Origin: Alphaproteobacteria bacterium
GTDB lineage: Bacteria > Pseudomonadota > Alphaproteobacteria > Bin95
Assembly (NCBI GenBank): GCA_963665325.3
Contig: OZ224045.1
Span: 1,632,001-1,696,000, forward strand
Length of the DNA: 64,000 nucleotides
Direction: 5' to 3'
Of the stretch, positions 22,402 through 49,649 are shown piece after piece; within the stretch, counting starts at the first letter, position 1, and each line of letters starts with the position of its first letter. Made by a program: the position numbers and the translations under genes. The notes below the pieces were generated by a model. The model was given only the letters and a program-made list of their open reading frames with translations. It was not told where the DNA came from and did not search any database.

Positions 22402-22435
22402 AAATGTTGGACAGGCGGTATTCGCTGACCGCGGC

Positions 22436-23302: not shown

Positions 23303-23314
23303 AGGCCTGACCGT

Positions 23315-23671: not shown

Positions 23672-23737
23672 GTCGATTTCACGATCTGTCACTTGACGTT
23701 CTCGCCATCCAAGTCCATGTATATTCCGACACAGTTT

Positions 23738-23757
23738 GCATGGCGAAGTCGCCATGC
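23738..23757. promoter_or_regulatory. Palindromic candidate operator in the capH/CD-NTase divergent promoter
   Basis: GCATGGCGA-AG-TCGCCATGC with perfect 9-bp arms; a further half-site TCGCCATCC at 23702. Confidence 0.55.
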
Positions 23758-23822
23758 GCAACTCATGGTGCTGCCCGGCGTTTAGGAGCAGGACTGGACC
23801 GGGTGCGGAGAAGGATAGCGGA

Positions 23823-25082
23823 ATGACAAGCAAGAACTATCCACTGCAACAGCCACTAGCCGATCCGGTGGACCTGTTGCTTGCCGACGTAGCGATCAGG
23901 GTGCAGCTGTCCCGGACCAATTACAGCAAGGCAATCGAACGGTACGAGACGATTAATGCCTGGATCGAACGCGACGGAAGTCCGCTGAAGGACCGGATTG
24001 TGCGGTTCTACCCCCAGGGTTCGATGGCGATCGGGGCGACGATCGCTTCGAAGCTGCGGACCGACGAGTTCGATATCGATGTCGTCGCACAGCTTGGTCT
24101 GCCGCTGAGCGTGTTGCCGAAAGACGCCTTGGATCTTTTGTTCCAGGCAATCCGAGGGGAACCGGGGTCGCGCTATTACCGGATGGTGGAACGTCGGACG
24201 CGGTGTGTCACGGTGCACTACGGAAACGATATGCATGTCGACGTGACGCCGGTGCTGCGCATGCTCGGTACGGCGGCGAGGCAAAGCCTGATCTTCCATC
24301 ACAATGAAGAATCGCCGCAGGATCCGGGGGATCGGTTGATCGCGAATCCCTACGGATTTGCTGAGTGGTTCAAGCTGAACACGCCGAACGACCAAGCCTT
24401 CGCCGAAATCTTCGAACAACGGGCTTGGGAGTACGAGGAAGCGTTGCGCATCCTTGCGGAGAAGGCCGAGAGCGAGCCTGTGCCTTCGCAGGAACCGGCG
24501 TTCCGGAAATCCAAGGCGGTCATCGTGCTGCAGCTTCTGAAGCGCTGGCGCAACGTTCAGTATGACGCGCGGTTGGGGCGCAAGCCTCCGTCGATCATGT
24601 TCGCCAAGCTGATCGCGGATGCGGCGAACCATACGGACGGGCTCTCGAAAGAACTGCTCCACCAGGCTCGGCACATGCTGGACGAGTTCCGCCGTTGCCA
24701 GGAGCTGGGGCGCCTCGTCCACATCGCCAACCCCGTTTGCGCCGAAGATGTTCTGACCGACCGGTGGCCAGGTAGCCTGCGTGACCAGGCAATCTTCATT
24801 GGCGACCTCGAGCACTTGGTCCGGCAGATCGAGCGCCTGATCGAGGGGTGCGACTTGGACGAAATGCAGAAAATAATGGCCGAGCTGTTCGGCGAGGCGC
24901 CGACGGGAGAAGCCTTCCGGAGCTTCAACGAGAAGGTCGGCGGCATGGTGCGGGAAGGCCAGAGTCGGCATCGCACCGGCACGGGCGGGCTGGTCTTGCC
25001 GGGTGCTGCTGCGGTCGTCGCGACGCCGTCTTTGGCGACGCCCAGGCACACGTTCTTCGGTGCGGACGACGACGACCGATGA
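23823..25082 (+). CDS. CBASS cGAS/DncV-like nucleotidyltransferase (CD-NTase)
   Basis: YPQGSMAIGAT...EFDIDVV, MHVDVTP, ANPYGFAEWF, QLLKRWRN, PPSI, IANPV and a C-terminal HTFFG followed by ADDDDR. Confidence 0.9.
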   Translation: MTSKNYPLQQPLADPVDLLLADVAIRVQLSRTNYSKAIERYETINAWIERDGSPLKDRIVRFYPQGSMAIGATIASKLRTDEFDIDVVAQLGLPLSVLPKDALDLLFQAIRGEPGSRYYRMVERRTRCVTVHYGNDMHVDVTPVLRMLGTAARQSLIFHHNEESPQDPGDRLIANPYGFAEWFKLNTPNDQAFAEIFEQRAWEYEEALRILAEKAESEPVPSQEPAFRKSKAVIVLQLLKRWRNVQYDARLGRKPPSIMFAKLIADAANHTDGLSKELLHQARHMLDEFRRCQELGRLVHIANPVCAEDVLTDRWPGSLRDQAIFIGDLEHLVRQIERLIEGCDLDEMQKIMAELFGEAPTGEAFRSFNEKVGGMVREGQSRHRTGTGGLVLPGAAAVVATPSLATPRHTFFGADDDDR

Positions 25083-25537
25083 CCCTGTCGATACGGGCAC
25101 AGATGGACCGGATGGGCCGAGCCTGGCCGGATTTCAGGGTTCTTGGCGCGACGGATTGGTTGGCGACCTGGGAAGGGTCGCTCCGGCCGCTGGCCATGCG
25201 CTACAGGGTGCGCGTATCGATGTGTTTCGGCAGGCAATTGAGCAATGCGGTGATCAGGAGTTATGCGCCCCGGATCACGGTGGTCTCTCCAATCCTGCGC
25301 CGGCGACCGGAACAGCCGGAGCAGCCGATCCCGCACATCTACCCGAACAGGTGTTCTCCCGACCGCCCGATCCTGTGCGTCTACCTTCCTGGGGCGGGGG
25401 AATGGGATTGGCGCGATGCGGTGGCCGACACGACGATCCCTTGGACCATCGACTGGCTGGCCTGTTACGAGGGCTGGCTCGCGACGGGAGAGTGGGCGGG
25501 CGGAGGCGTTCATCCGACAAAGGAGCGGGCGGCGTGA
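25079..25537 (+). CDS. CBASS E2/UBC-like protein (short type II Cap2)
   Basis: WEGSLRP, PHIY...LCVY (catalytic Cys), TIPW..WL..YE.WLATGEW.GGG.HP; ATGA overlap with the CD-NTase. Confidence 0.85.
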   Translation: MTLSIRAQMDRMGRAWPDFRVLGATDWLATWEGSLRPLAMRYRVRVSMCFGRQLSNAVIRSYAPRITVVSPILRRRPEQPEQPIPHIYPNRCSPDRPILCVYLPGAGEWDWRDAVADTTIPWTIDWLACYEGWLATGEWAGGGVHPTKERAA

Positions 25538-26625
25538 TGCCGGCGCCGGTGGGCGAAGGGTCGCCGAGACGGTCGTCGGGGGCGCTTGATCGTCGCCGTG
25601 TTCCGCTTCCTTGGCCGGAGGATCGGCCGTTTCGCATTCTTTCAATCGACGGAGGCGGCATTCGGGGTATCTATCCCGCCGCTTTCCTGGCGGAGCTCGA
25701 ACGGCGCTACCTTGGCGGGGAATCCGTGGCGCGGCACTTCGATCTCATCGCGGGGACTTCGACCGGCGGGATCCTCGCCGTGGGCCTGGGAGCGGGCATC
25801 ACGGCCGCAGAGTTACGCGACCTCTATGTCAATCGTGGATGCGAAATCTTCCCGCCGATCAGGCCGAGAGCGCTGGAGGGGATCCTCCGACGGTGCCGGA
25901 GCGCATGCCAAGTGTTCAAGTACCGATACAACCGAAGAGCGTTGGAAGGAATTCTGAAGGAGACGCTGGGCGAACGGAAGTTCGGAGAGGCAGGGACACG
26001 CCTCTGCATTCCGTCCTTCGATGGTCGGTATGGGGAGGTTTACATCTTCAAGACACCTCATCACCCGGATTTCCGGAAAGATGGGCGTGAGTTCATGACG
26101 AAGGTGGCTGAAGCCACATCGGCGGCTCCGACATTTTTTCGGCCGCTCGAAGACGGCGGCTACACCTTCGTCGACGGCGGGGTATGGGCGAACAATCCGG
26201 TAATGATCGGCTTAGTCGACGCGTTGACCTGCTTTGCGGTCAAGGCGGAGCAGGTTCGGATTTTGAGCGTTGGATGTGGCGACGATCCCTACGTTGTCGA
26301 CCGACGCAAGATTGTGGGAGGCGGCATATGGGCGTGGCGGGACGTGATCTTCGCCGCAATGCGGCTTCAGTCGCAGAACGCCCTCGGGCAGGCGGGGCTC
26401 CTTATCGGCGCCGACAGGATCGTCCGAATCGATGCGCCGACAACCGAGGCGAAGATTGAGATGGACGACTGGAGACGCGCGGTGGACGAACTGCCCGGCG
26501 CGGCGGAAACGGCGACTGACGAAATGGGTCCCGAAGTGGCTGCAAGGTTTCTGCGCGAACCTGCGGTACCGTACAGGCCGATTAGAACAACAGACATCCA
26601 AATGGCCCCGGTTCAGAGCAGATGA
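25537..26625 (+). CDS. capV: CBASS patatin-like phospholipase effector
   Basis: ILSIDGGGIRG, GTSTG, KTPHH, TSAAPTFF and DGGVWANNP. Confidence 0.9.
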   Translation: MPAPVGEGSPRRSSGALDRRRVPLPWPEDRPFRILSIDGGGIRGIYPAAFLAELERRYLGGESVARHFDLIAGTSTGGILAVGLGAGITAAELRDLYVNRGCEIFPPIRPRALEGILRRCRSACQVFKYRYNRRALEGILKETLGERKFGEAGTRLCIPSFDGRYGEVYIFKTPHHPDFRKDGREFMTKVAEATSAAPTFFRPLEDGGYTFVDGGVWANNPVMIGLVDALTCFAVKAEQVRILSVGCGDDPYVVDRRKIVGGGIWAWRDVIFAAMRLQSQNALGQAGLLIGADRIVRIDAPTTEAKIEMDDWRRAVDELPGAAETATDEMGPEVAARFLREPAVPYRPIRTTDIQMAPVQSR

Positions 26626-27301: not shown

Positions 27302-28129
27302 TCAAGCGGCGGCGCGGCTAGTTCCCATCCGTGACGCGCTCCGTGCGAGGATGCGAAGGGCCGTGCGAAGCTGCTGGCCGCTGCCGGCGGCCACGCGCAC
27401 GCACACACCGCTGCCGTCACGCGTCGGCGCGATGCCTGTCCAGATGCCGTCGTCCAGCCTGTCCGCCGTCGAAGTCATGACCCCCAGTGCCCCGTCCGGG
27501 TCTTCCGACAGGACGATCACCGTGCCGAACGATGTCCATGTGCCGGGCATCTCGGCGAGCCGGGCCAGCAGTTCTCCGGTCACCTGCTGACGGTCCTCGA
27601 ACAGGACGGTGCCGTCGGGGCGCCGGACGACGACTTCGGATCTCCAGCACCGCCTGCCCGGCAAGGCCGCACAGATACCCTCGCAGGAAACCAGAGTTGA
27701 GACTCGCGGGAGCGTGATCGTCTGTCGAAGGGTCAGGTCCGCATCGTCGAACAACACGTAGGGTTCCGACAGCAGCACGGCCCGCGACCCGTGGCCCAGA
27801 TCAATCGCCCAGTCCGAAACGCTGCCCTGTCCGCCCGGCGTCCCGTAGGTCAGCATCGCACCGGCACTCTCAAGATGCAGAGCCGCGCCGTCCTCGATGC
27901 GAATGCGCTGCCCGATCCGGTCTCCTGCCAGCAAACCGGCTCCGGCAACCTGGGGGATCAACGTGACCGGCGTCCCGGGTGGTCCGGGATATCCCCGGCC
28001 CAGCGACCAGGGGAAGGAAACACGGCGGAACGCCAGGCGGCTGCGCCCGTCTGCCCCCAGGCCGATGATCAGGTCCATGGACGGCGCGCCCGGTGAGGTG
28101 GACGGGCCCGTGGCCGGCAACGCGTTCAC
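27302..28129 (-). CDS. ureD: Urease accessory protein UreD
   Basis: AGLLAGD motif; last gene of the ure cluster. Confidence 0.8.
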
Positions 28130-28731
28130 CGGAACAGCACGGCGTCCCTGATCTGCGTGGCCACCGCGCCGATACCCCGGCCCGCGCGACAGTTCGTGCC
28201 CAGGACCGGGGCGTTGCCACGGACCCGTGTTGCCTCCTCGAACATCCTTGCCAGGTCGACACCGACATGCGGGGCCAGATCGATCTTGTTGATCACCAGA
28301 AGATCGCTCTTAAGCACCCCCGGTCCGCGCTTGCGGGGAATGTCGTCGCCGCCCGAGACGTCAATCACGAACATCCACCAGTCGACCAGGTCCAGCGAAA
28401 AGGTCGAGGCCAGGTTGTCGCCGCCGCTTTCCAGCAGAACCAGGTCCAGGTCGGGAAATTGCCGGTCCAGCCGGTCTGCGGCGGCCAGGTTCGGTGTCGG
28501 GTCTTCGCGGATCACCGTATGCGGGCAGGCGCCGGCCTGCACGGCAAGAATCCTCTCGGGCGGCAGGCGGCCGCCGCGGCGCAGGCGCTCGGCGTCTTCA
28601 TCGGTGACCAGGTCGTTGGTGATGACGGCGGCTTCCACACCCTCATGGGCGAAGGACACCAGGAGGCGCTCTATCAGTGCCGTCTTGCCCGAGCCCACGG
28701 GCCCGCCTATGCCCACGCGGGCGGCGGTCAT
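28126..28731 (-). CDS. ureG: Urease accessory GTPase UreG
   Basis: [21 protein letters not shown] and NKIDLA. Confidence 0.95.
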
Positions 28732-30431
28732 CGCAGGAAGTGGCTGCGTGCCAGCGGCACGCGGGTTGCGGGTTCAGCCTGCAGCAGCACACCATCGGCG
28801 CGGACCTCGAAGGTGGCCGGATCCACCGCGATGTCAGGACAGGCGCGGTTGCGGATCATGTCAGGCTTGCCGAGGGAACGCACCGAGGTGATTGGCAGGA
28901 TCTCCTTCTGCACGCCGAGGCGTTTGGCAATGTCGTTGTCGATGGCAAGCCGGCTGGCGAAGGTTGCGCCAAGCCGGTGTTTCACGGTTCCCAGGGCTCC
29001 CCACATCGGCCTGTGCAGAAGCGGCTCCGCCCCGATGAAGCTGCCGTTGCCGTCCCCCATGACCGACCAGACGATTTCGCCGGATTTCACCACCATCTTC
29101 GGCTTGGCGGCGAAGTGGTCGGGCCGCCAGAATACCAGGTCGGCCATCTTGCCAGGCTCGATCGAGCCCACATGCGCATCGATTCCGGCCGCGATCGCCG
29201 GGTTGACGGTCAGCTTGGCCATGTAGCGCAGGATGCGTTCATTGTCGGCACAGGCCGTTTTCTCTTCGGCCAGACGTCCGGTCCGGTCCTTCATGATCGA
29301 TGCCAGCTGGAACGCCTTGGTCGCGTTCTCGGCCAGACGGCCCATACCCTGGGTGTCGGTCGCAAAGATCGAGATTGCGCCCAGGTCGTGCAGGAAATCC
29401 TCCGCGACCATGGTCTGCGGGCGGATGCGCGCCTCCGCAAAGGCCACGTCCTCCGGCAACTCGTAGCTCATCGCGTGGGCCAGCATGGTCATCGGCACCC
29501 CCTCCTCCAGTGCCGCCGGCGTGAAGGGGTTGGTGGGGTTGGTCGAGGACGGCAGCACGTTGGCGAAACCGTTCACGGCGAGGATGTCGGGCGCATGACC
29601 GCCGCCCGCGCCCTCGGTGTGGTACATGTGAATGGTCCGACCGGCGACGGCGGCCATGGTGTCCTCGTAGAACCCGAACTCGTTGATGGTATCGGTGTGG
29701 ATGTGGACCGAGAAGTCCGCCGCATCCGCGGCGCGCAGGCACCCGTCGATCACGGCGGGCGAGGCACCGAAGTCCTCATGGATCTTCACCCCGAGCGCGC
29801 CGCCCGCAACGCTCTCCGCCACTGCGCCCGCGTCCGAGCATCCGCGCCCCAGGAACCCGAAATTGAGCGGATATTCGTCGCAGGCCTGGATCAGCCGGCC
29901 CAGGGTATGTGGGCCCGAGCAGGACACATCGAAATGCGGCCCGGGGCTCATCCCGATCATCGTGGTGCAGCCCCCCGCGAGTGCATGGTACGCCTGTTGA
30001 GGTGACAGGAAATGCGCGTGCGCCTCGATCACGCCGGGGGTCACGATCAACTGGTCGCCATGCATGATCGTCGTGTTGGGTCCGGTATCCAGGCCGGGTG
30101 TGACACCGGCCATGATCTCCGGGTTCCCGGCCTTTCCGACGCCCACGATACGCCCGCGGCGCACGCCGATATCGGCCTTGATGATCCCCAGAACCGGATC
30201 GATGATCAACGCGTTGTGCACGACCAGGTCCAGGGCCTGTTCGGCATCGGTACCGCGGGTGCGGAATCCCTCGCCATCGCGCATGACCTTGCCGGCCCCG
30301 GTGGTCAGTTCGTCGCCAGGATGGGTGTGGTCGTGCTCGACCTCCGCCAGCAGGGACGTATCGCCCAGGCGGATCATGTCGCCGGTGCTCGGCCCGTAGA
30401 GGCGGGCGTACTGGCCGCGATCCATTTTCAC
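28728..30431 (-). CDS. ureC: Urease alpha subunit homolog (divergent)
   Basis: YGPSTGD..RLGDT, Hx[32 protein letters not shown] and DTQGMGR; the flap Cys is absent. Confidence 0.92.
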
Positions 30432-31120
30432 GGCGCGTCCTCCAGATACCCGCGATCCCTGGCGCGCTGGAACGCGGCCTCGCGTGTGGCCGGGTCATCC
30501 GCCGGGCCCTCGGCCAGACCGGCAAAACCGCGGATTTCACGCGTCCCGGCATAGGGCACGAGGCGCACGCGCCGACCGATTCCGGGGTCGAAGCGTTCCC
30601 CGCCACCGGAGGGACGGTCCAGCCGCATGCCCCAGGCCCTGGTCCGGTCAAACTGCAGCACTCTGTTGACCTCGAAGAAATGTGCATGGCTTCGGACCTG
30701 TATGGACCGGTCGCCGGTGTTCAGCACGTCGATTTCGACGCCCTCGCGCCCGGCGTTGAGCTCGATCTCTCCCGCTTTCGGGATGATCTCGCCGGGGACA
30801 GGCGCCGCATCGCCGCCCGGAGGGATCGGATCAAAGACCGTCACCAGCTTGGTGCCCTCGGCCATCGAAACCTCGACCGAGACCATCCGCAGCATTTCCG
30901 GCACGCCCGCCTCGACGTCCTCTGCCGTCAGGATGGTTCCGCCCAGCGAAACCAGCGCCGGGTGGTCCAGCCCCTTCCGGGCCGCCAGCAGGATTTCGTC
31001 GGCGATGAGGGCATTGGCCTCGGGCAGCGACAGGCGCACGCCTTCGCTTCGATATCGTCGCGCGAGTTCGGCCGCCTGGAAGATGACCAGTCGGTCCATT
31101 TCTGTCGGGGTCAGGTTCAT
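30428..31120 (-). CDS. ureAB: Fused urease gamma/beta subunit
   Basis: MNLTPTEMDRL...GTKLVTV..PI (gamma) followed by PGEI...NTGDRSIQV..H.HFFEVN (beta). Confidence 0.92.
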   Translation of the reverse strand: MNLTPTEMDRLVIFQAAELARRYRSEGVRLSLPEANALIADEILLAARKGLDHPALVSLGGTILTAEDVEAGVPEMLRMVSVEVSMAEGTKLVTVFDPIPPGGDAAPVPGEIIPKAGEIELNAGREGVEIDVLNTGDRSIQVRSHAHFFEVNRVLQFDRTRAWGMRLDRPSGGGERFDPGIGRRVRLVPYAGTREIRGFAGLAEGPADDPATREAAFQRARDRGYLEDAP

Positions 31121-31130
31121 TGGCGTCTCT

Positions 31131-31781
31131 TCAGTTGGCGAACAACCGCCCGTCGCCGGGGCGCATCATCGCGATTTCCGAGATCGGGGCAAAGCTGGCG
31201 GGCAGCGTGCCGGGCAGCGGCGGGGCCGTGAAAGGGGCGAATTCCGGCTGCAGGTCCCGCAGGATGCCCTGCGCTTCCAGTGCTCCGACCAGGCCCAGCC
31301 GCACCGCGGCGCCGGCCAGTCCCTGTGCCGCGGCGTGGGCGGAAACGGCCAATGCCGGTGCAAGCTCAAGTCCCATGGACCGGAACACCGCGCCCTGGGC
31401 AACCGGCAGGTGCCCGGCGGCCTCTCCGTCCAGCACCGCCCCGCGGAACCGCACTGCCACGGGGTCGCCCAGGCGCGCCGTTGCCGAGAGAAACGCCTGC
31501 CCGGCCTCGGCCGAGCGGGCCCGCAACGGTTCGGCCATGAACAGACGATCGGTCCTGGCATCGACCGGCAACTCGTCATCGGTCCGATATGCATCCGCCA
31601 GCACGACCCGGTCGAACTGCGCCCAGCGGCCGAGCATCTCGACAGCCAGCCAGGGACCGAAGCCCGCACGGTCAAGCCGGCCGTTTTCCGCAGCGGTCTC
31701 CATCCCCCATGAATAGGCGAAGGCGCCTGACGGAAAGCCGCTGTCAGCCAGCTGCAGGGCGCGCAGGGTATCCAGGCTCAC
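31131..31781 (-). CDS. ureF: Urease accessory protein UreF
   Basis: LQLADSGFPSGAFAYSWGME and C-terminal RLFAN; GTG start overlaps the ureE stop. Confidence 0.9.
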   Translation of the reverse strand: MSLDTLRALQLADSGFPSGAFAYSWGMETAAENGRLDRAGFGPWLAVEMLGRWAQFDRVVLADAYRTDDELPVDARTDRLFMAEPLRARSAEAGQAFLSATARLGDPVAVRFRGAVLDGEAAGHLPVAQGAVFRSMGLELAPALAVSAHAAAQGLAGAAVRLGLVGALEAQGILRDLQPEFAPFTAPPLPGTLPASFAPISEIAMMRPGDGRLFAN

Positions 31782-32233
31782 TGCCCGGCCTCCAAGCGTT
31801 CGATCGCAAAACTGCAGAACACTTCCGCATCGGCCAGCCGGGCACGGTAGGTATCCTCCGGCCCGTCCATGTGGACGACAATGGCGCCGCCGCAAAAGTC
31901 GGCCTTCCAGTGCAGATTGCCGCAGAAGTAGCCGAGCCGCAGCCCGGAGGCGACGTCAGCGGGTATCAGGCGCAGGCGTGGGCCGCCATCGATGCGGGCG
32001 ACGATCATCAGGCCCTCGTCCGAATACAGGACGGCGCCGTCCTCCAGTGCCGCATCGCGGGGCAGGGCAAGGGCCACATCCCTTCCCCTGTCCGTTACCA
32101 GGCGCATTCTGCGCCGCGGTGCGTCGACGCGCGCGATCCGCACGGTCTCCAGCGCACCCCTCGCCTCTGACGCATGAGCCCGGTCGTGCCACGGTTGCTC
32201 GACGGTGCGGCCGAGCACGGCAGAGAGCACCAT
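31778..32233 (-). CDS. ureE: Urease accessory protein UreE
   Basis: RRRMRLVTDRG, LEDGAVL and GNLHW; no His-rich tail. Confidence 0.85.
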   Translation of the reverse strand: MVLSAVLGRTVEQPWHDRAHASEARGALETVRIARVDAPRRRMRLVTDRGRDVALALPRDAALEDGAVLYSDEGLMIVARIDGGPRLRLIPADVASGLRLGYFCGNLHWKADFCGGAIVVHMDGPEDTYRARLADAEVFCSFAIERLEAGQ

Positions 32234-32266: not shown

Positions 32267-33781
32267 CTACATCGCCGTCCAGTCACCCGATTGTTCGAAC
32301 GCATGCGCGGCGCGGTAGATGCTCGTCTCGTCGAAATGCCTGCCTGTCAGCATCATCGAAACCGGCAGCCCGTCGGACATGCCGCAGGGCACCGCCATGG
32401 CCGGGTGCCCGGTGACGTCGAAGGGAGCGGTGTTGGCGAGCATCTCGAACGCCCGGGCGAAGGTGCCCTCTCGCGCATCGCCGGGGCCGGGCAACCTGGT
32501 TGCCTTCAAGGGCAGGGTCGGCATGAGCAGGAGATCATGCTCGGCCAGCACGGCGTCATAGGCCGCGCGGAGCCGCCGGGCGATGTTCTGGGCCTTCGCG
32601 TAGTACCGGCCCCGGTAGGCATTGATGCCGTACTGGCCCGCAAACATTGAAATCTTCAGTGTCTCGGAAAGCTCGTCGGCCCTGGCCCGCCAGCCTGCAT
32701 GGGCATCGATCAGTGTCGGGGAGTACAGCCCCTTGTAGTTCATGCCATAGCCGTTCCCCTGCATCATCTGCCACTGCAGTCCTTCCAGCGCGATGGGGGT
32801 CCAGACGACGATGCCCTGGCTGTGCATCGGGATCGAAACCTCGGTCACCGTGGCGCCAAGGCTCTCCAGCTTCCCGGCAGCGGCGCGGACCTTCGCATCG
32901 ACATCGGCTTCTGAGTTCTCGTGCCCGAAGCCCTCCCTGACAACCGCGATCCTCATGCCCTGCACGCCCGCGCCCAGTGCCTCGGTGTACGGTGCCGTCG
33001 CCGGGTCGTACTGCCGGGGATCCAATCCGTCCGCACCGGCCAGGACCTCGAGGAACAGGGCATTGTCGGCGACGGTCCGGCTCATCGGGCCGGTGTGGTC
33101 GATTGTCAGCTCGATCGGCATCACCCCGGTATAGGGCACAAGACCATGGGTGGGTTTCAGGCCGTACACTCCGCAATATGCGGCGGGCATGCGGATCGAG
33201 CCTCCCTGGTCACCGCCAATCGCTAGGTCGACCTCGTTGGCCACCAGCAGCGCGCCCGAGCCGGATGACGATCCTCCGGCCGAATAGCCGGGCTTGCGCG
33301 GGTTTTCCACCGGCGCCGGACTGGACGTATGGCTGCCGCCCGACAGGCAGAAATACTCGCAGGTCGCCTTGCCGAGGATCGTTCCGCCCGCGTCCAGGAT
33401 ACGCTGGACGATCGTGGCGTCGACATCGGGAACAAAGCCCTCGAGCGTCGAGGCGCCGTTCATCATCGGCACGCCGGCAACCATGACATTGTCCTTGATG
33501 GCCACCGTCTTGCCTGCCAGCTTGCCCGTGGGCGCGCCCTTGATCTCGGATTTCCAGTACCAGGCGTTGTACGGGTTTTCCTCGGGTTTCGGGCGATGGC
33601 CGGGGGTGCGGGGCCAGGTCACCGCCGGGATCTCGTCGGGCATTTCGTCCAGGGCGTCGTAGCGATCGAAAATGCCCTGCATGTTCTCCAGGTAGAAGTC
33701 GACTTCTCCGCTGTCCATCGACATGCCCAGTTTCGCGATGATCCCGGACATCTGCGCGGTGGTAGGCCTCTTGATCGCCAT
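32267..33781 (-). CDS. Amidase signature enzyme
   Basis: IKDN, GGSSSGS and GDQGGSIRMP (Ser-cisSer-Lys triad). Confidence 0.93.
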   Translation of the reverse strand: MAIKRPTTAQMSGIIAKLGMSMDSGEVDFYLENMQGIFDRYDALDEMPDEIPAVTWPRTPGHRPKPEENPYNAWYWKSEIKGAPTGKLAGKTVAIKDNVMVAGVPMMNGASTLEGFVPDVDATIVQRILDAGGTILGKATCEYFCLSGGSHTSSPAPVENPRKPGYSAGGSSSGSGALLVANEVDLAIGGDQGGSIRMPAAYCGVYGLKPTHGLVPYTGVMPIELTIDHTGPMSRTVADNALFLEVLAGADGLDPRQYDPATAPYTEALGAGVQGMRIAVVREGFGHENSEADVDAKVRAAAGKLESLGATVTEVSIPMHSQGIVVWTPIALEGLQWQMMQGNGYGMNYKGLYSPTLIDAHAGWRARADELSETLKISMFAGQYGINAYRGRYYAKAQNIARRLRAAYDAVLAEHDLLLMPTLPLKATRLPGPGDAREGTFARAFEMLANTAPFDVTGHPAMAVPCGMSDGLPVSMMLTGRHFDETSIYRAAHAFEQSGDWTAM

Positions 33782-33855: not shown

Positions 33856-35250
33856 TCAGAGCACTGGACGGCGTTCACCCCAGTCGGTCATGCGCTGATA
33901 TGCATCGCAAAGCCGGATCGACGTTGCCTCGCCGAACGGCCGGGCGATGGCCTGGAAGGCAACCGGCAGGCCGGCTTCGGTAAACCCGCAGGGAGTGGCG
34001 ATCGACGGCAGGCCCGTGACATTGGCCGGAGCCGAGAGCCTCACGAAGACCGGGGTTACCGGCTCGATGACGCCATTGCCCCAGTCCACGGTTTCCTGCC
34101 CGACCCTCGTGGCGGGCGACGGCACGGCCGGCGCGACGATCAGGTCGATGTCTTCATAGGCCTTCGCCCACGCCCGTTGCATCAACTGGCGAACGCGCAG
34201 GGCCTGAATATACCGGGTCGCGGGCATCAGCTCGCCCGCCTCCAGGAAGGTACGCACGTCGTCGGTGTAGAGATCCGGGTCATCGCGCAGCATCACCCTG
34301 TGGTATTCGCTGGCTTCCGGCAGGCACAGGGCAAACTCGACCGACATGATCTGGTCGGCATATGGGATCTCGACATCCGAGATCACCGCCCCTTCCGCCG
34401 CGAACAGGTCGATGGCGGCCCGCACGGCGACCTCGACCTCGGCGTCGCACCTGTCGAAATAGTAGTTGGTCGGAACGCCGATACGCAGACCCCTGACGTC
34501 CTGTCCCAGTGCCGCGGTGTAATCCTCGGCCGGGATATCGACGCTACCCGGATCGCGCGGGTCGTATCCCGCCAGCGCATTCAGGCAGACCGCAGCATCG
34601 GCCACCGTCCGCGTGAGAGGCCCGACATGGTCCAGCGACCACGACAGCGAGGTGACTCCGGCCCGGCTGCAGCGCCCGAAGGTCGGCTTGAGCCCCACGG
34701 TCCCGCACACGGCGGCCGGTATGCGGATCGACCCGCCGGTGTCCGATCCCATGGCCATGAACGTGCTGCCGACCGCAACCGACGCGCCCGAGCCGCCCGA
34801 AGACCCCCCGGGGATGCACCCGGTGTTCCATGGATTGCGCGTATTCGGCGTCGAAATGCCGTAGGCGAACTCGTGTGTGTGTGTCTTGCCGAGGATCACG
34901 GCGCCGGCTTCGCGCAACTGCGCGACACTGGCCGAGTCCGTCTGCGCGCTCCAGTTCTCGCGAACCTTCGACGAGGAGGTCGTGGGCACGCCCGCCACGT
35001 CGTAGAGTTCCTTTATGCCGACCGGGATGCCATGCAGTTCGCCGCGCCAGGCGCCGGCGGAAATCTCGGCTTCGGCGGCCCTGGCCTCCGCCATTGCGCT
35101 GTCGGCCAGGATGCAGGAGAAGGCGTTCAGCTTGGGTTCGGTTGCGGTCGCCCGGTCCAGGCACTCCCGTGTGACGTCGACGGGCGAAACCTCACCGGAC
35201 CTGATCTTCGCCGCGACATAGCGCAGGCTCATGTCGGTCAACGCTGTCAT
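33856..35250 (-). CDS. Amidase signature enzyme (GatA/AtzE-like)
   Basis: GIPVGIKE, GKTHTHEFA, GGSSGGS and GSDTGGSIRIP. Confidence 0.93.
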   Translation of the reverse strand: MTALTDMSLRYVAAKIRSGEVSPVDVTRECLDRATATEPKLNAFSCILADSAMAEARAAEAEISAGAWRGELHGIPVGIKELYDVAGVPTTSSSKVRENWSAQTDSASVAQLREAGAVILGKTHTHEFAYGISTPNTRNPWNTGCIPGGSSGGSGASVAVGSTFMAMGSDTGGSIRIPAAVCGTVGLKPTFGRCSRAGVTSLSWSLDHVGPLTRTVADAAVCLNALAGYDPRDPGSVDIPAEDYTAALGQDVRGLRIGVPTNYYFDRCDAEVEVAVRAAIDLFAAEGAVISDVEIPYADQIMSVEFALCLPEASEYHRVMLRDDPDLYTDDVRTFLEAGELMPATRYIQALRVRQLMQRAWAKAYEDIDLIVAPAVPSPATRVGQETVDWGNGVIEPVTPVFVRLSAPANVTGLPSIATPCGFTEAGLPVAFQAIARPFGEATSIRLCDAYQRMTDWGERRPVL

Positions 35251-35456
35251 GGCAGGTCTCTCCACCGCGGATCAAAGGAATTCGTCGGTGGGGTTTCGCC
35301 GAGATCAACAGCATCGAGCGCATCGAGAAGGCCCAGGATGCCGTCGAGAGCAGGCGTGACGACTGCCCGTCTATCGGAAGTCAGTTCCAGCCGTGCGGCC
35401 CTGCCCAGTACAAGCAACTCAGACGGTTCGATCTGCTTGGGAACGGAGTCACTCAT
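35247..35456 (-). CDS. Small GatC/AtzG-like amidase partner protein (69 aa)
   Basis: GGAGG RBS; MSDSVPKQIEPSELLVLGRAARLELTSDRR...LDAVDLGETPP..SFDP; stop overlaps the amidase ATG. Confidence 0.75.
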   Translation of the reverse strand: MSDSVPKQIEPSELLVLGRAARLELTSDRRAVVTPALDGILGLLDALDAVDLGETPPTNSFDPRWRDLP

Positions 35457-36146
35457 CTGGAAGCCTCCTTCGGGTGCGTACCATTCATCCGCGGTACCAT
35501 AACCCAGCTTGGCGGGACTTCCGACTGATCGGGCGCGAGGGTGGCGGGTCCATGCCGTGACGTGCCGCCATATGCCCGACATCGGCTCTGAAAGGACGAT
35601 CATGGAACCGTGACCTGTCGGCCGCGTCGATCGTCGCCGAGCCTGAAGCGCCGTGACGATCGTGCCTTCCGCCCTGCGGGGACCCGTCCGACTGGCCCCG
35701 CCGGTCCGGACAGGGACGGTGTCGCCGCCGGCGAGCGGGCTCACGCGGCGCTCGTCGCCGACGAAATGGGGCGGATCCGGTGCTCCGGCTTGCATCGCAT
35801 TCACGGATCCGGCCGGGATGGCGCAGCGTCGTTTCCCGGAGCACCCCGCTCAGGCGAAGGCCCGGGCCAACCTGGTTCATTCCGACGGAATGTGAGGGTT
35901 CGGCCGGAACTGGACGTGAAAACTATCGTTTTGAATCAATGCGATCTAGGACAGAAAAAGTGACAAGGCGCCAGGCGGCGACAACGGTGTCGTCCGCTCC
36001 CCCGCCGCCGCACAGGCCCTGAAACAGTCCTGGAGATCGTACTGCGCCGCAACAAGCGGCTTGCACGTGTGCGGGTTCAGTGACCAATATTGCGGTGTTG
36101 GCGAAGACCTGTGCTTTGCGTCGGGTCAACGAGGTACTCCTGCAGT

Positions 36147-37031
36147 ATGGATGACGCGATCAAGCTGATCTTTGACGTTGCCGCCTTTGCATCGATCATG
36201 GTGCTCGTCGTTTCAGGGCTTGCGGTCATTGCCAGCTTGATGGGGATCTTCAACCTGGGTCATGGCGAATTCGTCCTGCTCGGCGCCTACACGGTCTTTC
36301 TGTTTCGCGAATGGGGTCTGCCGATCTGGCTGGGCATGATGGTGGCACCTTTCGTGGTCGGCGCGTTCGGCGCAGGTGTCGAGCGCACCGTGATCCGGCG
36401 ACTGTATGCCCAGCCCGTCATTGCGATGCTGGCCACCTATGCGATCGGACTGATCATCCGCGAAATCGTTCGCGGACTGATCGGCGGAAAGTACTACGCG
36501 ATCGAGGAACCGCTGGCCGGCGCGTTCCAGATGGGGGATATCAGCTTTTCGGTGTGGCGGACCGTGATCATCTGCGCGACCGTCGCAACCATGGTGGGTG
36601 CGTGGATGTTCCTGACGCGCAGCCGCGCCGGCCTGCAGATCCGCGGTGCGTTGGAGAACGCGGCGCTGGCGCGGGCGTCCGGTGTCTCGACCGCCCGCCT
36701 TTATGCGCTGACCTTTGCCATGGGTGCAGCGCTAGCCGGTCTGGCCGGAGCGCTGATGGTGCCCCTGTTCTCGCTGTCCGCGGACCTGGGCGTGCGTTTC
36801 CTGGTGCAGGCATTCCTCTCGGTCATGCTGGGCGGCATCGGCACGTTCAGCGGGCCTGTGATCGGTGGCGCGATGATCGGGTCCATGGTGCCCGGATTCC
36901 AGTGGCTGCGCGAGATTCCGGGCGTGGCCGGACAGGTCAGTCCCGTCGTCGCCGAGGTTCTGGTCTTCGTCACCGCCTTGATTATAGTGAAATTCTGGCC
37001 GAACGGCCTCATCAGCGCAGGGAGGAAGTAG
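36147..37031 (+). CDS. HAAT-family ABC permease (LivH/UrtB-like)
   Basis: MGIFNLGHGEF, GLAGAL and LGGIG. Confidence 0.92.
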   Translation: MDDAIKLIFDVAAFASIMVLVVSGLAVIASLMGIFNLGHGEFVLLGAYTVFLFREWGLPIWLGMMVAPFVVGAFGAGVERTVIRRLYAQPVIAMLATYAIGLIIREIVRGLIGGKYYAIEEPLAGAFQMGDISFSVWRTVIICATVATMVGAWMFLTRSRAGLQIRGALENAALARASGVSTARLYALTFAMGAALAGLAGALMVPLFSLSADLGVRFLVQAFLSVMLGGIGTFSGPVIGGAMIGSMVPGFQWLREIPGVAGQVSPVVAEVLVFVTALIIVKFWPNGLISAGRK

Positions 37032-37032
37032 A

Positions 37033-38256
37033 GTGGCAATTCACAAGGGCATGACACGTCGCACCTTTCTACGCGGCACCAGCGCGCTCGCGGCAGCAGG
37101 CTGGACCGCCGTCGGAACGTCCTGGGTGCTTTCGCCCGAATGGGCGCATGCGGCGGGCCCGATCAAGATGGGCATCGCCACCGACATCACCGGTGCAATC
37201 GCCCCGGGCGGCAACTCGAACTGGCAGACCGCCCAATTCGCGGCCAAGCAGATCAATGAGGCCGGCGGCATCCTCGGACGGCCGGTCGAACTGATCCTGG
37301 AGGACACCGCGTCCGACCCCGGCACCGCGGTCGGCAATGTCCGCCGCCTGATCCAGCAGGCGCAGGTCGATGTCGTGCTGGGCGGCATCACGTCGGCCAT
37401 GCGCGAGGCGATCAAGAATCCGATCGTGCGACGCGGCAAGACGCTCTACATCTACCCGCAGCTCTACGAGGGTCAGGAGTGCACCCAGCATCTCTACTGC
37501 ACCGGTCCCACGCCGTTCCAGCAGTGTGGCGCGTTGCTGCCCTACCTGATCAAGGAGAAAGGCATGAAGCGGTTCGCCATGCCTTCGGCCAACTACATCT
37601 GGCCACAGCTTCTGAACGAGTGGGCGCGGCGCGTGATCGAGGAGAATGGCGCCGAGGTGGTGATGGAGGAGTACTTCCCCCTCGACCAGCTCGAGTATTC
37701 GGCGACGGTCGCCAAGATCATGTCGGAGGGCGTCGATCACGTCTTCAACACCGTCATCCCGCCGGGACTGCAGGCATTCACCAAGCAGCTGTACGAGGCC
37801 GGGTATCATGACAAGGGCGGAACTCTCAGCTGTGTCTACTACGACGAGAACTCGGTGAACTACGTCGCTCCGCGCGAGCTCGAGGGTGTCTATTCCTGCG
37901 TCGACATGTTCCACACCGTCGATGACCCGTTCACCCACCAGCTCATCGCCGACTACAACAAGATGTGGCCGGATTCGCCGTATCTCTTCACCGCCGGAAC
38001 CGCGGCAACCGGCATGTACCGGGGCATCAAGTTCTACGAAGCGGCCGTGATCGAAACGAACGGCGACCTGTCGCGGGAGGCGACAAGTGCCGCTATCGAC
38101 CACGCCATGATCGAGCAGGGGCCGGGTGGAGGCGCACGGATGGTTCCCGGAACCGGACACTGCGAGATGAACATGTACATCGCGCAGTCCAGGTCCGGTG
38201 TCTGGAACATCATCCAGGCAGACCAGGCGGTCGATCCGAAAGAATGCATCGGTTGA
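37033..38256 (+). CDS. Amide/urea-type (AmiC/UrtA-like) substrate-binding protein with Tat signal
   Basis: TRRTFLR twin-arginine motif, GGILGRPVE, YPQLYEGQE and NYIWP. Confidence 0.88.
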   Translation: MAIHKGMTRRTFLRGTSALAAAGWTAVGTSWVLSPEWAHAAGPIKMGIATDITGAIAPGGNSNWQTAQFAAKQINEAGGILGRPVELILEDTASDPGTAVGNVRRLIQQAQVDVVLGGITSAMREAIKNPIVRRGKTLYIYPQLYEGQECTQHLYCTGPTPFQQCGALLPYLIKEKGMKRFAMPSANYIWPQLLNEWARRVIEENGAEVVMEEYFPLDQLEYSATVAKIMSEGVDHVFNTVIPPGLQAFTKQLYEAGYHDKGGTLSCVYYDENSVNYVAPRELEGVYSCVDMFHTVDDPFTHQLIADYNKMWPDSPYLFTAGTAATGMYRGIKFYEAAVIETNGDLSREATSAAIDHAMIEQGPGGGARMVPGTGHCEMNMYIAQSRSGVWNIIQADQAVDPKECIG

Positions 38257-38265
38257 ACCGGAACA

Positions 38266-38294
38266 CGCGGCTGCGGGTCAGTCCCGCAGCCGCG
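38266..38294. other. Intercistronic stem-loop after the binding-protein gene
   Basis: CGCGGCTGCGGG-TCAGT-CCCGCAGCCGCG, perfect 12-bp stem with no U-tract. Confidence 0.6.
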
Positions 38295-38319
38295 ACTGTC
38301 CTGCCCCGGACCTGACTAG

Positions 38320-39375
38320 ATGGCCCCGCCCGGCACTCCGCCCCGCAAGCAGCGGAAGATCATGCCGATCCTTGAGGTCGGCGTGCTTGTTGCGCTCCTG
38401 CTCGTTCCCCTGGTCACGAGCGACTTCCACACCATTATCGCCTCCCGCATGCTCCTGTTGGCGTTCCTGGCCATTAGCTTCGATCTCTGCTGGGGGTATT
38501 CGGGTATCATGACCTTTGGCCAGGCCTTGTTCTTCGGCATGGCCGGTTATGTGTCGGCCCTGTTGGCCAACAAGGCGGGCTTTGTCCAGATCTGGGGAAT
38601 CGTGCCGGTCTCGATGGCGGTCGGTCTGGTCAGTGCGTTCCTGATCGGCTGGTTCCTGTTGCTCGGCAGGCGTACGCCCACGATCATCTTTGTCGCGCTC
38701 GGCACGCTGACGGCGTCCTACGCGGCAGAACGACTGGTCGCAGGCTGGCAGTGGGTCGGAGCAGCAAACGGCATGTCGGTCTGGGACTTCCTGAAGGTCG
38801 GCCCCTACGAGATCGAGCCGGGCCCAACCTTCTACTACATCATCCTCGGCTTCCTGATCGTCTGTTACGTGGCCAGCCGATGGATCGTGCGCTCGCAGTT
38901 CGGACTGGTGCTGGTGGGCATGCGCCAGAACGAGGAACGGCTCGCCTTCTTCGGGTACAGGGTACAGCGGTTCAAGGCGCTGGTGTTTTCCTTCGCGGGA
39001 ATGGTCACGGGGCTGGCGGGAGGGCTCTACGCCTTCCACGAAGGGTTCATCGGCCCGGGCAACCTTGGCATCGTTCAATCCACCTACGCGGTTCTCTACG
39101 GTCTGTTCGGCGGCGTCGGGACCCTGCTCGGCCCGGTCCTGGGCGTCGGCGCCATCGAGATGATCGCCTTCAACCTGTCCGACATCGATGAGCTGAAACC
39201 CTACTGGCCGGTCGTGCTGGGAGCCATCATGCTCGTCGTCGTTACCTACCGGCCCACCGGGATCATGGGCTTCCTGGTCTCGACCCGCGAGCGCATCGGA
39301 ACCTTCGGCCTGATCAGGGATGCCTGGCGAGACCGGACGAAACCGGACGACAAGGGTTCCGGTGGCCCTGCTTGA
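38320..39375 (+). CDS. HAAT-family ABC permease (LivM/UrtC-like)
   Basis: DLCWGYSGIMTFGQ, RQNEER..F.GY and GGVGTLLGP. Confidence 0.92.
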   Translation: MAPPGTPPRKQRKIMPILEVGVLVALLLVPLVTSDFHTIIASRMLLLAFLAISFDLCWGYSGIMTFGQALFFGMAGYVSALLANKAGFVQIWGIVPVSMAVGLVSAFLIGWFLLLGRRTPTIIFVALGTLTASYAAERLVAGWQWVGAANGMSVWDFLKVGPYEIEPGPTFYYIILGFLIVCYVASRWIVRSQFGLVLVGMRQNEERLAFFGYRVQRFKALVFSFAGMVTGLAGGLYAFHEGFIGPGNLGIVQSTYAVLYGLFGGVGTLLGPVLGVGAIEMIAFNLSDIDELKPYWPVVLGAIMLVVVTYRPTGIMGFLVSTRERIGTFGLIRDAWRDRTKPDDKGSGGPA

Positions 39376-40096
39376 AGTCAGCGGCGTTGCAAAGACCTTC
39401 GGTGCGCTGAGGGCGCTCGACGGCGTCAGCCTTTCGGTCGTGTCCAACAGCTTTCACGGGCTCATCGGGCCAAACGGGTCCGGAAAGAGCACGCTGCTCA
39501 AGGCCATTGCCGGAGACCACTTTGCCGACAGCGGGCGCATCCGGTTTGACGGTCGCGACATCACGACAATGCGCCCGGCGCGGCGGTCCCGTCTCGGTCT
39601 GAGTCTCAAGTTCCAGATCACCGCCGTGCTGCCGGAGCTCTGCGTCTATGACAACGTCCTGCTGGCCCTCCAGGCCCACCTGTCGATCTGGGGGCTTCTC
39701 AGGTCGAACTCGCGGCGCGCACTGCACGGAGAAATCAGCGAAACGCTCGACAGGTTCCAGCTGCTCGACCGGGCAGACGACCTGGCGGGCGAGTTGAGCC
39801 ATGGGCAGCAACAATGGCTCGAGATCGCCATGGCGTTGATGCAGCGCCCGAAACTCCTGCTGCTCGATGAGCCCACCGGCGGGATGAGCCCGGAGGAACG
39901 CCGGGCCACCGGCGAATTGCTGGCCCCGATCCGCGCGCACTGTGCGATGGTGATCGTCGAGCATGATCTCGACTTCATCAAGGATATCTGTGACCGGCTG
40001 ACCGTCATGGACAATGGCCGGATCCTGGATGACGGCACCGTCGAGGAAATAGAACGCTCGGCAAGGGTTCAGGAGGTCTACACAACCCGTGTCTGA
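39362..40096 (+). CDS. ABC ATPase (LivG/UrtD-like)
   Basis: GPNGSGKS, LSHGQQQWLE, LLDEP and EHD. Confidence 0.92.
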   Translation: MALLEVSGVAKTFGALRALDGVSLSVVSNSFHGLIGPNGSGKSTLLKAIAGDHFADSGRIRFDGRDITTMRPARRSRLGLSLKFQITAVLPELCVYDNVLLALQAHLSIWGLLRSNSRRALHGEISETLDRFQLLDRADDLAGELSHGQQQWLEIAMALMQRPKLLLLDEPTGGMSPEERRATGELLAPIRAHCAMVIVEHDLDFIKDICDRLTVMDNGRILDDGTVEEIERSARVQEVYTTRV

Positions 40097-40790
40097 CGAG
40101 CCGCTTCTCCGTGTCGACGGGCTTTCCGCAGGCTATGGCCGCAGCCAGGTCCTGTTCAATGTCTCGATGACCGCTCCGCGCACCGGCGCGGTGGCCATCC
40201 TCGGGCGCAACGGCGCGGGGAAGACAACGCTTCTGAACACGCTGGTCGGCGAGATCACGCCGATGGGTGGCAGCATTGCGTTTGATGGCCAGGAGTGCGC
40301 CGGTGAGGGGACCGAACACCGGGTGCGACGGGGGCTCGGCTACGTCCCGCAGGAGCAGGCGATCTTCGGCTCGCTGACCGTTCGCGAGAACCTTGCGCTC
40401 GGCACAATGGCGCAGCCTGAGACAGTCAGCCTTGACATGGCCCTCGAGTTTTTCCCCAAGCTTGCCGAACGGCTAGGTCAGCAGGCCGGCACGCTGTCCG
40501 GCGGCGAACGCAAGATGCTGGCAATCAGCCGGGCGATCCTGGGCCGCCCGAGACTGCTTATGCTCGACGAACCCACCGAGGGTGTGTGGGTCGGGGTGAT
40601 CGAGGAGATCGCAGAGCGCCTGCAGCGCCTCGCGCGCGAGATCAGCCTGGTCATCGTTGAACAGCACGTGGAACTGGCGCTGCGCGTCACTGACCACGCC
40701 TATGTCATGGACCGGGGCACCGTGGCGCTCGACGGGCCCTCGGCAGAAATCCGCAACGACCCGGACCTGGTGCGCTACCTCGCGCCGTAG
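40089..40790 (+). CDS. ABC ATPase (LivF/UrtE-like)
   Basis: GRNGAGKT, LSGGE and LDEPTEG. Confidence 0.92.
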   Translation: MSDEPLLRVDGLSAGYGRSQVLFNVSMTAPRTGAVAILGRNGAGKTTLLNTLVGEITPMGGSIAFDGQECAGEGTEHRVRRGLGYVPQEQAIFGSLTVRENLALGTMAQPETVSLDMALEFFPKLAERLGQQAGTLSGGERKMLAISRAILGRPRLLMLDEPTEGVWVGVIEEIAERLQRLAREISLVIVEQHVELALRVTDHAYVMDRGTVALDGPSAEIRNDPDLVRYLAP

Positions 40791-45976: not shown

Positions 45977-45981
45977 CGGCG

Positions 45982-47806: not shown

Positions 47807-47860
47807 CGGAACCGGCTGCCCGAAAGGACGGACCGCCGCCGGAGCGGCGGCCCGTTCAGC

Positions 47861-49402: not shown

Positions 49403-49649
49403 GCGTTTTCTCCCCTGTTTCCCGATTGGCCACGACGCCAACGCTTCTCGCCCCGCGGAGCCAATCTACTGCCCGCCTCGACTGGGCGCGAATGCCCGTG
49501 CCGCAACATTGCCGCCGTTCGAGGCTGCCCGATGGAAGCCTCCGCAGGATCATCTGCCGAACGTATTAGTGCATACTCGGCCTCCGGTCCATTTCGCCAA
49601 TCGTTTCCGGGCCCAGTCGGGCTGGAGTGGGTCCCTGGGGCCGGACAGT

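Follow-up and report, generated by a model that had tools for sequence, protein, structure and literature searches.

A divergent urease-type catalytic subunit with a remodelled flap, encoded next to amidases in an alphaproteobacterial genome

Urease, the archetype of the nickel enzymes, is regarded as acting almost exclusively on urea. UreA2B2 of Helicobacter mustelae is an iron urease without accessory genes. In Brucella, according to the available part of PMC2868824, only ure1 encodes an active urease, and ure2 carries urea and nickel transporters. For Rhodoalgimonas zhirmunskyi, the available part of PMC10608839 describes an operon of the type discussed here as a second operon for urea catabolism, gained by lateral transfer and accompanied by an additional urea transporter. 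This report concerns such a system in an Alphaproteobacteria bacterium (GTDB lineage Bin95, assembly GCA_963665325.3), in a window—the whole stretch of DNA that was analysed—of 64,000 nucleotides of contig OZ224045.1 (positions 1,632,001 to 1,696,000), and focuses on a ureC-like gene whose product we refer to as the variant UreC. Our analysis suggests that this protein is a functional urease-type nickel hydrolase with a differentiated role, and we favour, with moderate confidence, the view that it is a urease of a dedicated pathway, acting on urea as part of a second, anciently diverged nickel system. A literature search, which did not cover subscription journals, found no paper that connects this operon type with amidases, with a substrate other than urea or with changed active-site motifs.

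A first result of this study is that the catalytic machinery of the variant UreC is intact. The gene and the motifs on which this rests, all placed by alignment, are as follows.

28728..30431, minus strand: ureC-like catalytic (alpha) subunit (P0001), a stop-free open reading frame (ORF) of 567 amino acids (aa)
30012-30020, minus strand: HAH motif with H138 and H140
29913..29954, minus strand: pocket loop, residues 160-173, four residues shorter than the canonical GGGTGPxxGTxATTCTPG
29772-29786, minus strand: KIHED motif with K216, H218 and D220
29469..29507, minus strand: first helix of the mobile flap, residues 309-321, with the catalytic His319 kept and the Cys replaced by Ala318
29337..29357, minus strand: DTQGMGR, with ligand D359, a Ser358Thr-type change and Gly362 at the Ala363 position
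In the same protein: HTD (H245) and HTEG (H271)

The alignments were made with HMMER to jack-bean urease 3LA4 and Yersinia urease 4Z42, and with MAFFT, and gene starts at the locus were placed from ORFs and ribosome-binding sites. The protein can be aligned over its whole length with ureases of known structure (E=1e-172 for jack bean 3LA4 in HMMER), contains the urease alpha N-terminal domain (PF00449, 148 bits) followed by the amidohydrolase barrel (PF01979, 169.5 bits), and scores 742 bits against NF009686, "urease subunit alpha." The equivalog cut-off of TIGR01792 is reached marginally (694 versus 680 bits); sister lineages score 733-769, and more distant homologues that keep the nickel ligands score 527-727, P0128 (727) among them lying above the cut-off. 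All six metal ligands (H138, H140, K216, H245, H271 and D359) are kept, as a preliminary description of this DNA had claimed, and so are the catalytic H218, D220, H319 and R335. The latter are equivalent to His219, Asp221, His320 and Arg336 of Klebsiella aerogenes, whose roles we take from the available part of the Mazzei-Musiani-Ciurli review (PMC7433671). In a 31-sequence alignment reaching down to 40% identity, the six ligands, H218, E219, D220, H319, R335, R337 and M363-G364-R365 are invariant.

The surroundings of the active site have changed in a more limited manner than was at first proposed. The ten pocket residues listed for K. aerogenes in the same part of that review (PMC7433671) are Ala167, His219, Glu220, Asp221, Gly277, Cys319, His320, Arg336, Ala363 and Met364, which agrees with the statement in the preliminary description that Ala167, Cys319 and Ala363 line the pocket. 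Their counterparts in the variant UreC are H166, H218, E219, D220, G276, A318, H319, R335, G362 and M363; seven of the ten are identical, and the changed ones are the equivalents of Ala167 (H166), Cys319 (A318) and Ala363 (G362). The review (PMC7433671, available part) also has the Ala167/170 and Ala363/366 equivalents contacting urea via their backbone carbonyls, and the distal urea nitrogen directed towards a channel next to Ala366 and the Cys and His of the flap. Since most of the direct pocket is identical and two of the three changed residues use backbone carbonyls, it has been altered less than had been thought. Judging from the alignments, the large changes sit in the loop that bears the Ala167 carbonyl and in the first flap helix. 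The canonical counterpart of the loop is GGGTGPAAGTRATTCTPS, a net gap of four residues, and the variant loop, being shorter and having gained a Met, is not by itself an argument for a larger pocket. The canonical counterpart of the flap helix, DEHLDMLMVCHHL, is kept in all 26 canonical long-loop ureases compared (one eukaryotic-type fused sequence included), and differs from the variant at 8 of 13 positions. The individual changes reported earlier—a loop about 4 aa shorter, a flap altered with loss of the Cys, and DSQAMGR turned into DTQGMGR—are thus all borne out by the alignments. Among the broader proposals, a nickel-type amidohydrolase with intact catalytic machinery is supported and remodelling holds for the loop and flap, but the first shell of the pocket is mostly unchanged, and neither this shell, in which two of the substitutions act through the backbone, nor the shortened loop demonstrates a different or larger substrate.

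A second result is that the variant UreC belongs to a separate clade with its own fixed active-site signature. We collected the 120 best matches, taken as representatives of 90%-identity clusters from a collection of 5.8 billion proteins, which are 70-99% identical to the variant UreC and come from Paracoccaceae, Mesorhizobium, Oharaeibacter, Geminicoccus, Kiloniellales, Sneathiellaceae and Burkholderiales; the named entries among them are all called "urease subunit alpha." The loop motif GM[ST][PL]GP is found in 119 of these 120, the flap motif G.PMTM in all of them and TD[TS]QGMGR in 117, so that these features are not due to chance. Two positions are less constant. At the Cys319 position there are 97 Ala and 20 Cys, so that the loss of the flap Cys holds for this protein but not for the 20 homologues that retain it, and at the Ala167 position there are 96 H, 19 N, 2 K, 1 A and 1 Y. 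In a tree of 83 UreC sequences (IQ-TREE quick search, 46 near-duplicates and ligand-less homologues having been dropped from 129 rows), the variant clade, with 32 rows, is monophyletic with an SH-aLRT support of 100 and a stem of 0.71 changes per site. The 26 canonical long-loop ureases form another clade, also with a support of 100, inside which the variant UreC is not nested, so the separate clade expected in the preliminary description was found. With a support of 99, three unusual short-loop sequences (L007, L010 and L021) join the variant clade, and adjoining these is a group whose loop is also short but whose flap is canonical (GGSLGPI-TVGIDCGG, DEHLDMxMVCHHLN and DSQGMGR). A 3-4 residue loop deletion and the Ala to Gly change in DSQ(A/G)MGR are thus present in the variant clade but common to this broader lineage with the flap DEHLDMxMVCHHLN, and are for that reason older than the variant clade. 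What is specific to the clade is the change of GG to GM and of GT to SP, the EGxP flap, and residues adjoining the ligands. Thirteen positions are fixed in the clade while the other two groups agree on another residue (G46A, D136E, G161M, Q207S, L249I, I284L, T307A, H311G, D313P, V317L, S358T, V369N and R372K); they are confined to residues 46-372, with none in the last 195 residues, and five of them lie at most three residues from a ligand or pocket residue or inside the flap, in segments that were defined post hoc. The flap type EEGVPM reaches past the clade, because it is also found, with a GNGPGP loop, in a plasmid-encoded homologue from Rhizobium tumorigenes that is 62% identical. A search of 50%-identity representatives merged the variant clade with ordinary ureases, leaving it unresolved, and yielded distant outgroups only. 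The ureC gene is under strong purifying selection, with ratios of nonsynonymous to synonymous substitution (dN/dS) of 0.07-0.14 against close relatives at unsaturated dS values of 0.07-0.77.

Two clade copies look damaged. One, in a metagenome-assembled genome (MAG; G437, C19 64743-66445), is in two pieces with an internal TGA, and in Salipiger thiooxidans (L073) the match is limited to residues 1-282. The homologue searches also brought up a wider radiation of UreC (L007, L010 and L021; P0128, P0130, P0133, P0135-P0137 and P0140) that keeps all di-nickel ligands and the flap His, has short loops, and shows divergent flap helices, for example DEQLDMTMACHLL, AELFPMTMTVHRQ and DELLGMITPVHQM. Nine of its members, two of the three loci and the seven proteins, were checked against NCBIfam, and the best model was "urease subunit alpha" in all; L010 is the only UreC found in its 98%-complete genome. 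Six further full-length UreC-like proteins with 35-39% identity (P0142, P0159, P0164, P0166, P0171 and P0173) have several metal ligands replaced and are probably non-catalytic urease homologues.

The third result concerns the genetic setting. The variant ureC lies in an operon with the order gatC-like, AtzE-like amidase, RhAmidase-type amidase, ureE, F, AB, C, G and D, whose other genes are listed here in the order of transcription.

35247..35456, minus strand: GatC/AtzG-like small ORF, 69 aa, with GAAGGAGG upstream and a 19-nt overlap with the AtzE-like gene
33856..35265, minus strand: AtzE/GatA-like amidase-signature amidase, 469 aa (6C62, 255 bits)
32267..33781, minus strand: RhAmidase-type amidase-signature amidase (Rhodococcus N-771 type), 504 aa (NF005565, 811 bits, cut-off 545)
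31778..32233, minus strand: ureE, 151 aa, without a His-rich tail (UreE_N, 49.5 bits; NF009752, 126 bits, below the cut-off of 162)
31131..31781, minus strand: ureF, 216 aa (PF01730, 72 bits), whose GTG start overlaps the ureE stop (GTGA)
30428..31120, minus strand: ureAB, fused gamma/beta subunit, 230 aa (NF009671, 298 bits, cut-off 243), with a 4-nt overlap with ureC
28126..28731, minus strand: ureG GTPase, 201 aa (TIGR00101, 230 bits, cut-off 204), with a 4-nt overlap with ureC
27302..28129, minus strand: ureD, 275 aa (PF01774, 78 bits), with a 4-nt overlap with ureG

The genes from ureE to ureD are separated by 4-nt overlaps or by gaps of at most 33 nt and are joined directly to an amidase gene: ureE, whose ATG is preceded by GGAGG, starts 33 nt past the amidase stop. 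Because ureE is found at 31778-32233, the variant cluster has a full UreDEFG set of its own, which the preliminary description had claimed. The 504-aa amidase matches PDB 3A1K, the Rhodococcus sp. N-771 amidase (PMC11732141, available part), at 500 bits over residues 11-497, and has GGSSSGS at residue 169 and the Lys motif AIKD at residue 94, which places it in this subfamily. The 469-aa amidase misses the cut-offs for AtzE, 1-carboxybiuret hydrolase (NF006631, 351 versus 461; TIGR02715, 336 versus 426), and the 69-aa ORF has a weak match to Pfam GatC (E=0.012, 16 bits) that is below the gathering score. No regulator gene was found adjoining the operon. There was no Rfam match at gathering scores in the whole window and none at E<=1 in 35200-36300, hence no riboswitch before the operon or the importer described below, and a promoter and terminator scan stayed at chance level, as did a sigma-54 consensus scan, with 25 matches against 24.2 expected and none in the intergenic region. 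In a coral metatranscriptome (run X1), contigs of 155-320 nt with 2-16 differing letters fall on ureC, the ureAB/ureC junction, ureF, the ureE/ureF junction and the AtzE-like gene. Since these contigs come from a relative, the library may contain DNA and many bins are uncovered, they are at most a weak hint of transcription of the operon and show nothing on co-transcription. On its ureD side, the cluster adjoins a low-GC stretch (21799-26625; GC 0.57-0.58 at 20-24 kb) that carries a CBASS-type defence pair, an oligonucleotide cyclase (23736-25082, PADLOC 509 bits) and a patatin-like phospholipase effector (25003-26625, 381 bits), near which the ORF at 21799-22401 matches 2TM effector models.

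Upstream of the operon, a five-gene importer of the ATP-binding cassette (ABC) superfamily is transcribed divergently.

36090..40790, plus strand: Urt/LIV-type ABC importer; best NCBIfam matches UrtB/A/C/D/E, all below cut-offs
36090-37031, plus strand: permease
37033-38256, plus strand: binding protein, 407 aa
38320-39375, plus strand: permease
39320-40096, plus strand: ATPase
40089-40790, plus strand: ATPase

None of the five passes the Urt equivalog cut-offs (A 198/493, B 179/250, C 148/296, D 249/304 and E 222/286), and the nearest solved relatives of the importer are urea-binding proteins and the amide sensor AmiC. Directly past the importer there is a 284-aa ORF (40914-41768) that looks, by eye, like a PhzF-type isomerase. 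A third amidase-signature amidase lies at 42547-44079; its best model is NF005686, with a score of 391 bits that falls short of the cut-off. ORFs within 42547-49441 may form a peptide-type ABC transporter, and the one tested (44963-45976) has ABC_tran and oligo_HPY domains. Elsewhere in the genome, on contig 1 (2171458-2179200; L106 8453-16207), two PRK07235-type amidases in tandem, which share 61% and 52% identity with the amidase in the window, come after a second LIV/Urt-like importer; no urease lies beside them, and an IS21-type element (IstB and an rve/Mu-type transposase) is about 3.8 kb away. An importer-amidase module can thus stand alone.

The genome also holds the second, canonical urease that the preliminary description had suggested looking for. 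On contig 3, a cluster comprises urtBCDE, ureD, A, B, C, E, F and G (the part that was read does not extend to urtA), and its UrtB-E score 420, 445, 366 and 335, all passing the equivalog cut-offs. Its ureC is interrupted, being split cleanly between ...NVIP and SSTNPT... by 4387 bp (contig 3 ~175647-180033; L004 7648-12034) with ORFs of 491, 277 and 204 aa, the longest of which weakly matches an integrase core (E=7e-4). The interruption is recent, since two close relatives (G401 and G423) have the gene in one frame, and it follows that any urease activity of this strain must come from the variant. The two systems are 47-53% identical in UreC, 54% in UreG, 36% in UreF, 30% in UreD and 31% in UreE. 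Overall, another UreC is present in 29 of 38 clade-bearing genomes, counts that come from related and therefore not independent genomes and are given without a test statistic. Among the 24 genomes reached via clade loci, 23 have at least one further UreC homologue at 47-53% identity and 7 have three UreC types; a further 14, all MAGs, mostly of 1.8-3 Mb and possibly incomplete, include 6 with another UreC and 8 with none. The 11 named isolates among the 24 genomes—Pseudodonghicola, Rhodoalgimonas, three Labrys, Acidocella, Kordiimonadales IMCC3096, Reyranella, two Acidisoma and Vineibacter—keep a canonical urease without exception. Four of 12 sampled genomes, themselves 82-100% complete, yielded no UreC other than the short-loop type with a canonical flap, and for this reason that lineage probably contains working ureases.

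The link between urease, amidase and importer recurs in relatives. Among 38 variant-clade loci scanned (L034-L071), 15 (L034-37, 39-42, 44, 47-49, 61, 70 and 71, from Thalassobaculaceae, Paracoccaceae, Labrys and Kordiimonadales) combine a five-gene LIV/Urt-type importer with a PRK07235-type amidase whose gene immediately precedes ureE/F, and five of these have two tandem amidases; many of the other 23 have short flanks. On plasmid pSM30-1 the modules come in another order, the ure cluster being followed by marR, two binding proteins, permeases, ATPases and then a 67%-identical amidase. Counting Oharaeibacter, the three components recur together in five groups and at least three arrangements. 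Other neighbours vary. L040 and L044 continue with an isochorismatase-family protein, a further amidase and a binding protein, and L040 has an FmdA/AmdA protein as well; in G188 a hydantoinase B and a molybdenum dehydrogenase precede the variant cluster; and FmdA-family and asparaginase-domain proteins lie upstream in the 62%-identical Rhizobium tumorigenes lineage. No amidases accompany ureE-F-AB-C(-G)-D in the members from Acidocella, Acidisoma, Reyranella and Burkholderiales, where the neighbours are unrelated. The residue at 166 or 318 showed no association with the presence of an amidase when the tables were compared by eye.

Our favoured scenario can be spelled out as follows. The variant UreC would assemble with the fused gamma/beta subunit and be matured by its own UreE, F, G and D, which would carbamylate Lys216 and insert two nickel ions. 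Standard urease chemistry would then apply: a nickel-bridging hydroxide would attack the carbamoyl C-N bond, His218 would polarise the carbonyl, and His319 of the flap, locked in place by Asp220 and Arg335, would help the leaving nitrogen to depart. Rather than a general nitrogen-scavenging urease, this would be the urease of a dedicated catabolic operon, in which the Urt-like importer would bring in a small amide or ureide, the co-operonic amidase-signature enzymes would split amide bonds, and the urease would release the remaining nitrogen from urea, either imported with the substrate or freed from it. If urea is the substrate, the remodelled flap would alter gating or kinetics, not specificity. 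The analysis directly shows the intact catalytic residues, the structure of the operon, the conservation of the clade, purifying selection and the recurring link to amidase and importer; nickel dependence, activity, urea as the substrate and the order of these steps we infer. Urea is favoured by the conserved first-shell residues, by the pass, marginal as it is, against TIGR01792, and by the probable ureases among the nearest relatives.

The most serious alternative, possible in our judgement although we lean away from it, is that the variant UreC is a neofunctionalised di-nickel hydrolase preferring a urea derivative, such as an N-acylurea, an N-alkylurea or another small carbamoyl or amide compound entering through the Urt-like importer. 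The N-acylurea is a conjecture that would link both enzymes neatly, because its decarbamoylation yields a primary amide on which the RhAmidase-type amidase could act. A substituent on the distal nitrogen would find space through the rebuilt flap helix and the smaller residues at the Cys319 and Ala363 positions, and the positions facing this nitrogen (the flap Cys and Ala366, in the available part of PMC7433671) are indeed changed here. The whole EGxP-flap clade might even represent a new nickel activity, that of a decarbamoylase or amidohydrolase acting on a substituted urea, and form one branch of a wider and unrecognised radiation of urease paralogues with intact di-nickel sites and different flaps, an idea that we hold no less tentatively. 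Several observations argue for another substrate or weigh against a dedicated-pathway urease. The clade is monophyletic, on a 0.71 stem with SH-aLRT 100, apart from the canonical long-loop ureases; a flap identical in 26 canonical enzymes has changed at 8 of 13 positions and then become fixed clade-wide, flap and loop being conserved in 119-120 of the 120 homologues; and the 13 fixed substitutions, 5 of them near a ligand or pocket residue or in the flap by the post hoc segments, include the ligand-adjoining D136E, G161M and S358T and four in or just before the flap helix. A complete second seven-gene nickel system is costly beside a canonical urease that could hydrolyse the same urea; a further UreC is kept in 11 of 11 isolates and 29 of 38 genomes, with three types in 7 of 24. 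The adjacent importer fails all five urea-transporter cut-offs, whereas that of the canonical cluster passes the four tested (UrtB-E). An amidase is missing from the vicinity in around half of the long-flanked clade members (Acidocella, Acidisoma, Reyranella and Burkholderiales), and neighbours in relatives, including the EEGVPM-flap lineage, are amidohydrolases of nitrogen-rich compounds (isochorismatase-family, FmdA/AmdA, amidases, hydantoinase B, asparaginase-domain proteins). This case is tempered by the pocket itself, in which seven of ten residues are identical and two of the changed ones act by a backbone oxygen, by the variability of the Ala167 position and the retention of Cys in 20 of 120 homologues within the clade, and by the loop deletion and Ala363Gly being common to flap-canonical relatives. 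Moreover, the C319A mutant of K. aerogenes urease retains substantial activity, and because neighbourhoods differ between genera no single substrate is indicated. The co-operonic amidases, the non-equivalog importer and the constant co-occurrence with canonical urease in isolates neither prove nor exclude a new substrate, and the variant UreC may act on urea or on a urea-like compound.

Two other explanations carry less weight. That this is an ordinary, redundant urease acquired by lateral transfer, with the adjacency of amidases incidental, is unlikely. It would fit the reading of the same operon type as laterally acquired (PMC10608839, available part), the clade members on plasmids, those in Acidocella, Acidisoma and Burkholderiales with unrelated neighbours, and the low-GC island with a defence system that adjoins the cluster in the window; but only 33 nt separate the end of the amidase gene from ureE, with 4-nt overlaps between the subsequent genes, the combination of amidase, importer and urease recurs across five groups, and selection is strongly purifying on a protein whose active-site signature is fixed clade-wide. 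An inactive or decaying relic is very improbable, even though the TIGR01792 score is marginal, one MAG copy is split by a TGA (G437), and Brucella ure2 gives no urease activity (PMC2868824, available part). Every ligand and catalytic residue is intact, dN/dS is 0.07-0.14, the accessory genes are intact, and the clade is conserved across orders. A dedicated-pathway urease acting on urea thus remains the reading that we prefer.

Either of the two leading readings would be of consequence. If the variant clade acts on another compound, a new reaction would join the small list of nickel enzymes, the value of ureC as an indicator of urea utilisation in surveys of sea and soil would have to be reconsidered, and the presence of two or three "ureases" in many Alphaproteobacteria would be explained. 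If it is simply a urease, it amounts to an experiment of nature on how far catalysis depends on a flap supposed to be invariant. The strain offers a ready experiment, its canonical ureC being interrupted.

Comparison with known systems places the variant as follows. With canonical ureases (K. aerogenes, Sporosarcina pasteurii and jack bean; PDB 1FWJ, 4CEU and 3LA4 classes) it shares ~50% identity over the full length, the two domains, the six ligands, the His/Asp/His/Arg set, the Met364 and Gly277 equivalents, gamma and beta subunits and UreDEFG. Unlike them, it has a loop bearing the Ala167 carbonyl that is four residues shorter, with GMSPGP for GGGTGP, the Cys319Ala and Ala363Gly changes, eight changes among the 13 residues of the first flap helix, a fused gamma/beta subunit, the gene order ureE-F-AB-C-G-D, and amidases in the operon. 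The nearest wider relatives, the short-loop ureases with a canonical flap (Marivibrio halodurans L077 and Rhodovastum atsumiense L080, 53-56% identity), share the loop deletion, QGMGR (in their case DSQGMGR), the fused ureAB, the gene order and often an upstream Urt-like transporter, and differ in keeping DEHLDMxMVCHHLN and GGSLGP. To our knowledge, no member of that lineage has been characterised. The second urease clusters of H. mustelae (UreA2B2, PDB 3QGA, which the variant UreC matches) and Brucella (ure2) are precedents for such a cluster whose role is unclear or not redundant. The co-operonic amidase shares the GGSSSGS signature and the Lys motif of RhAmidase (PDB 3A1K), an enzyme that belongs with a nitrile hydratase cluster, and here has a urease-type enzyme as partner. 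The ureEFACGD operon of Rhodoalgimonas zhirmunskyi 10Alg 79 (L047) belongs to the same clade, with 74% identity, the same order, an extra Urt-like operon and a PRK07235 amidase; the available part of its account (PMC10608839) makes no remark on active-site changes or on the amidase. What was already known, then, is the operon type as a second urease operon (PMC10608839, available part), and curated families label the whole radiation "urease subunit alpha."

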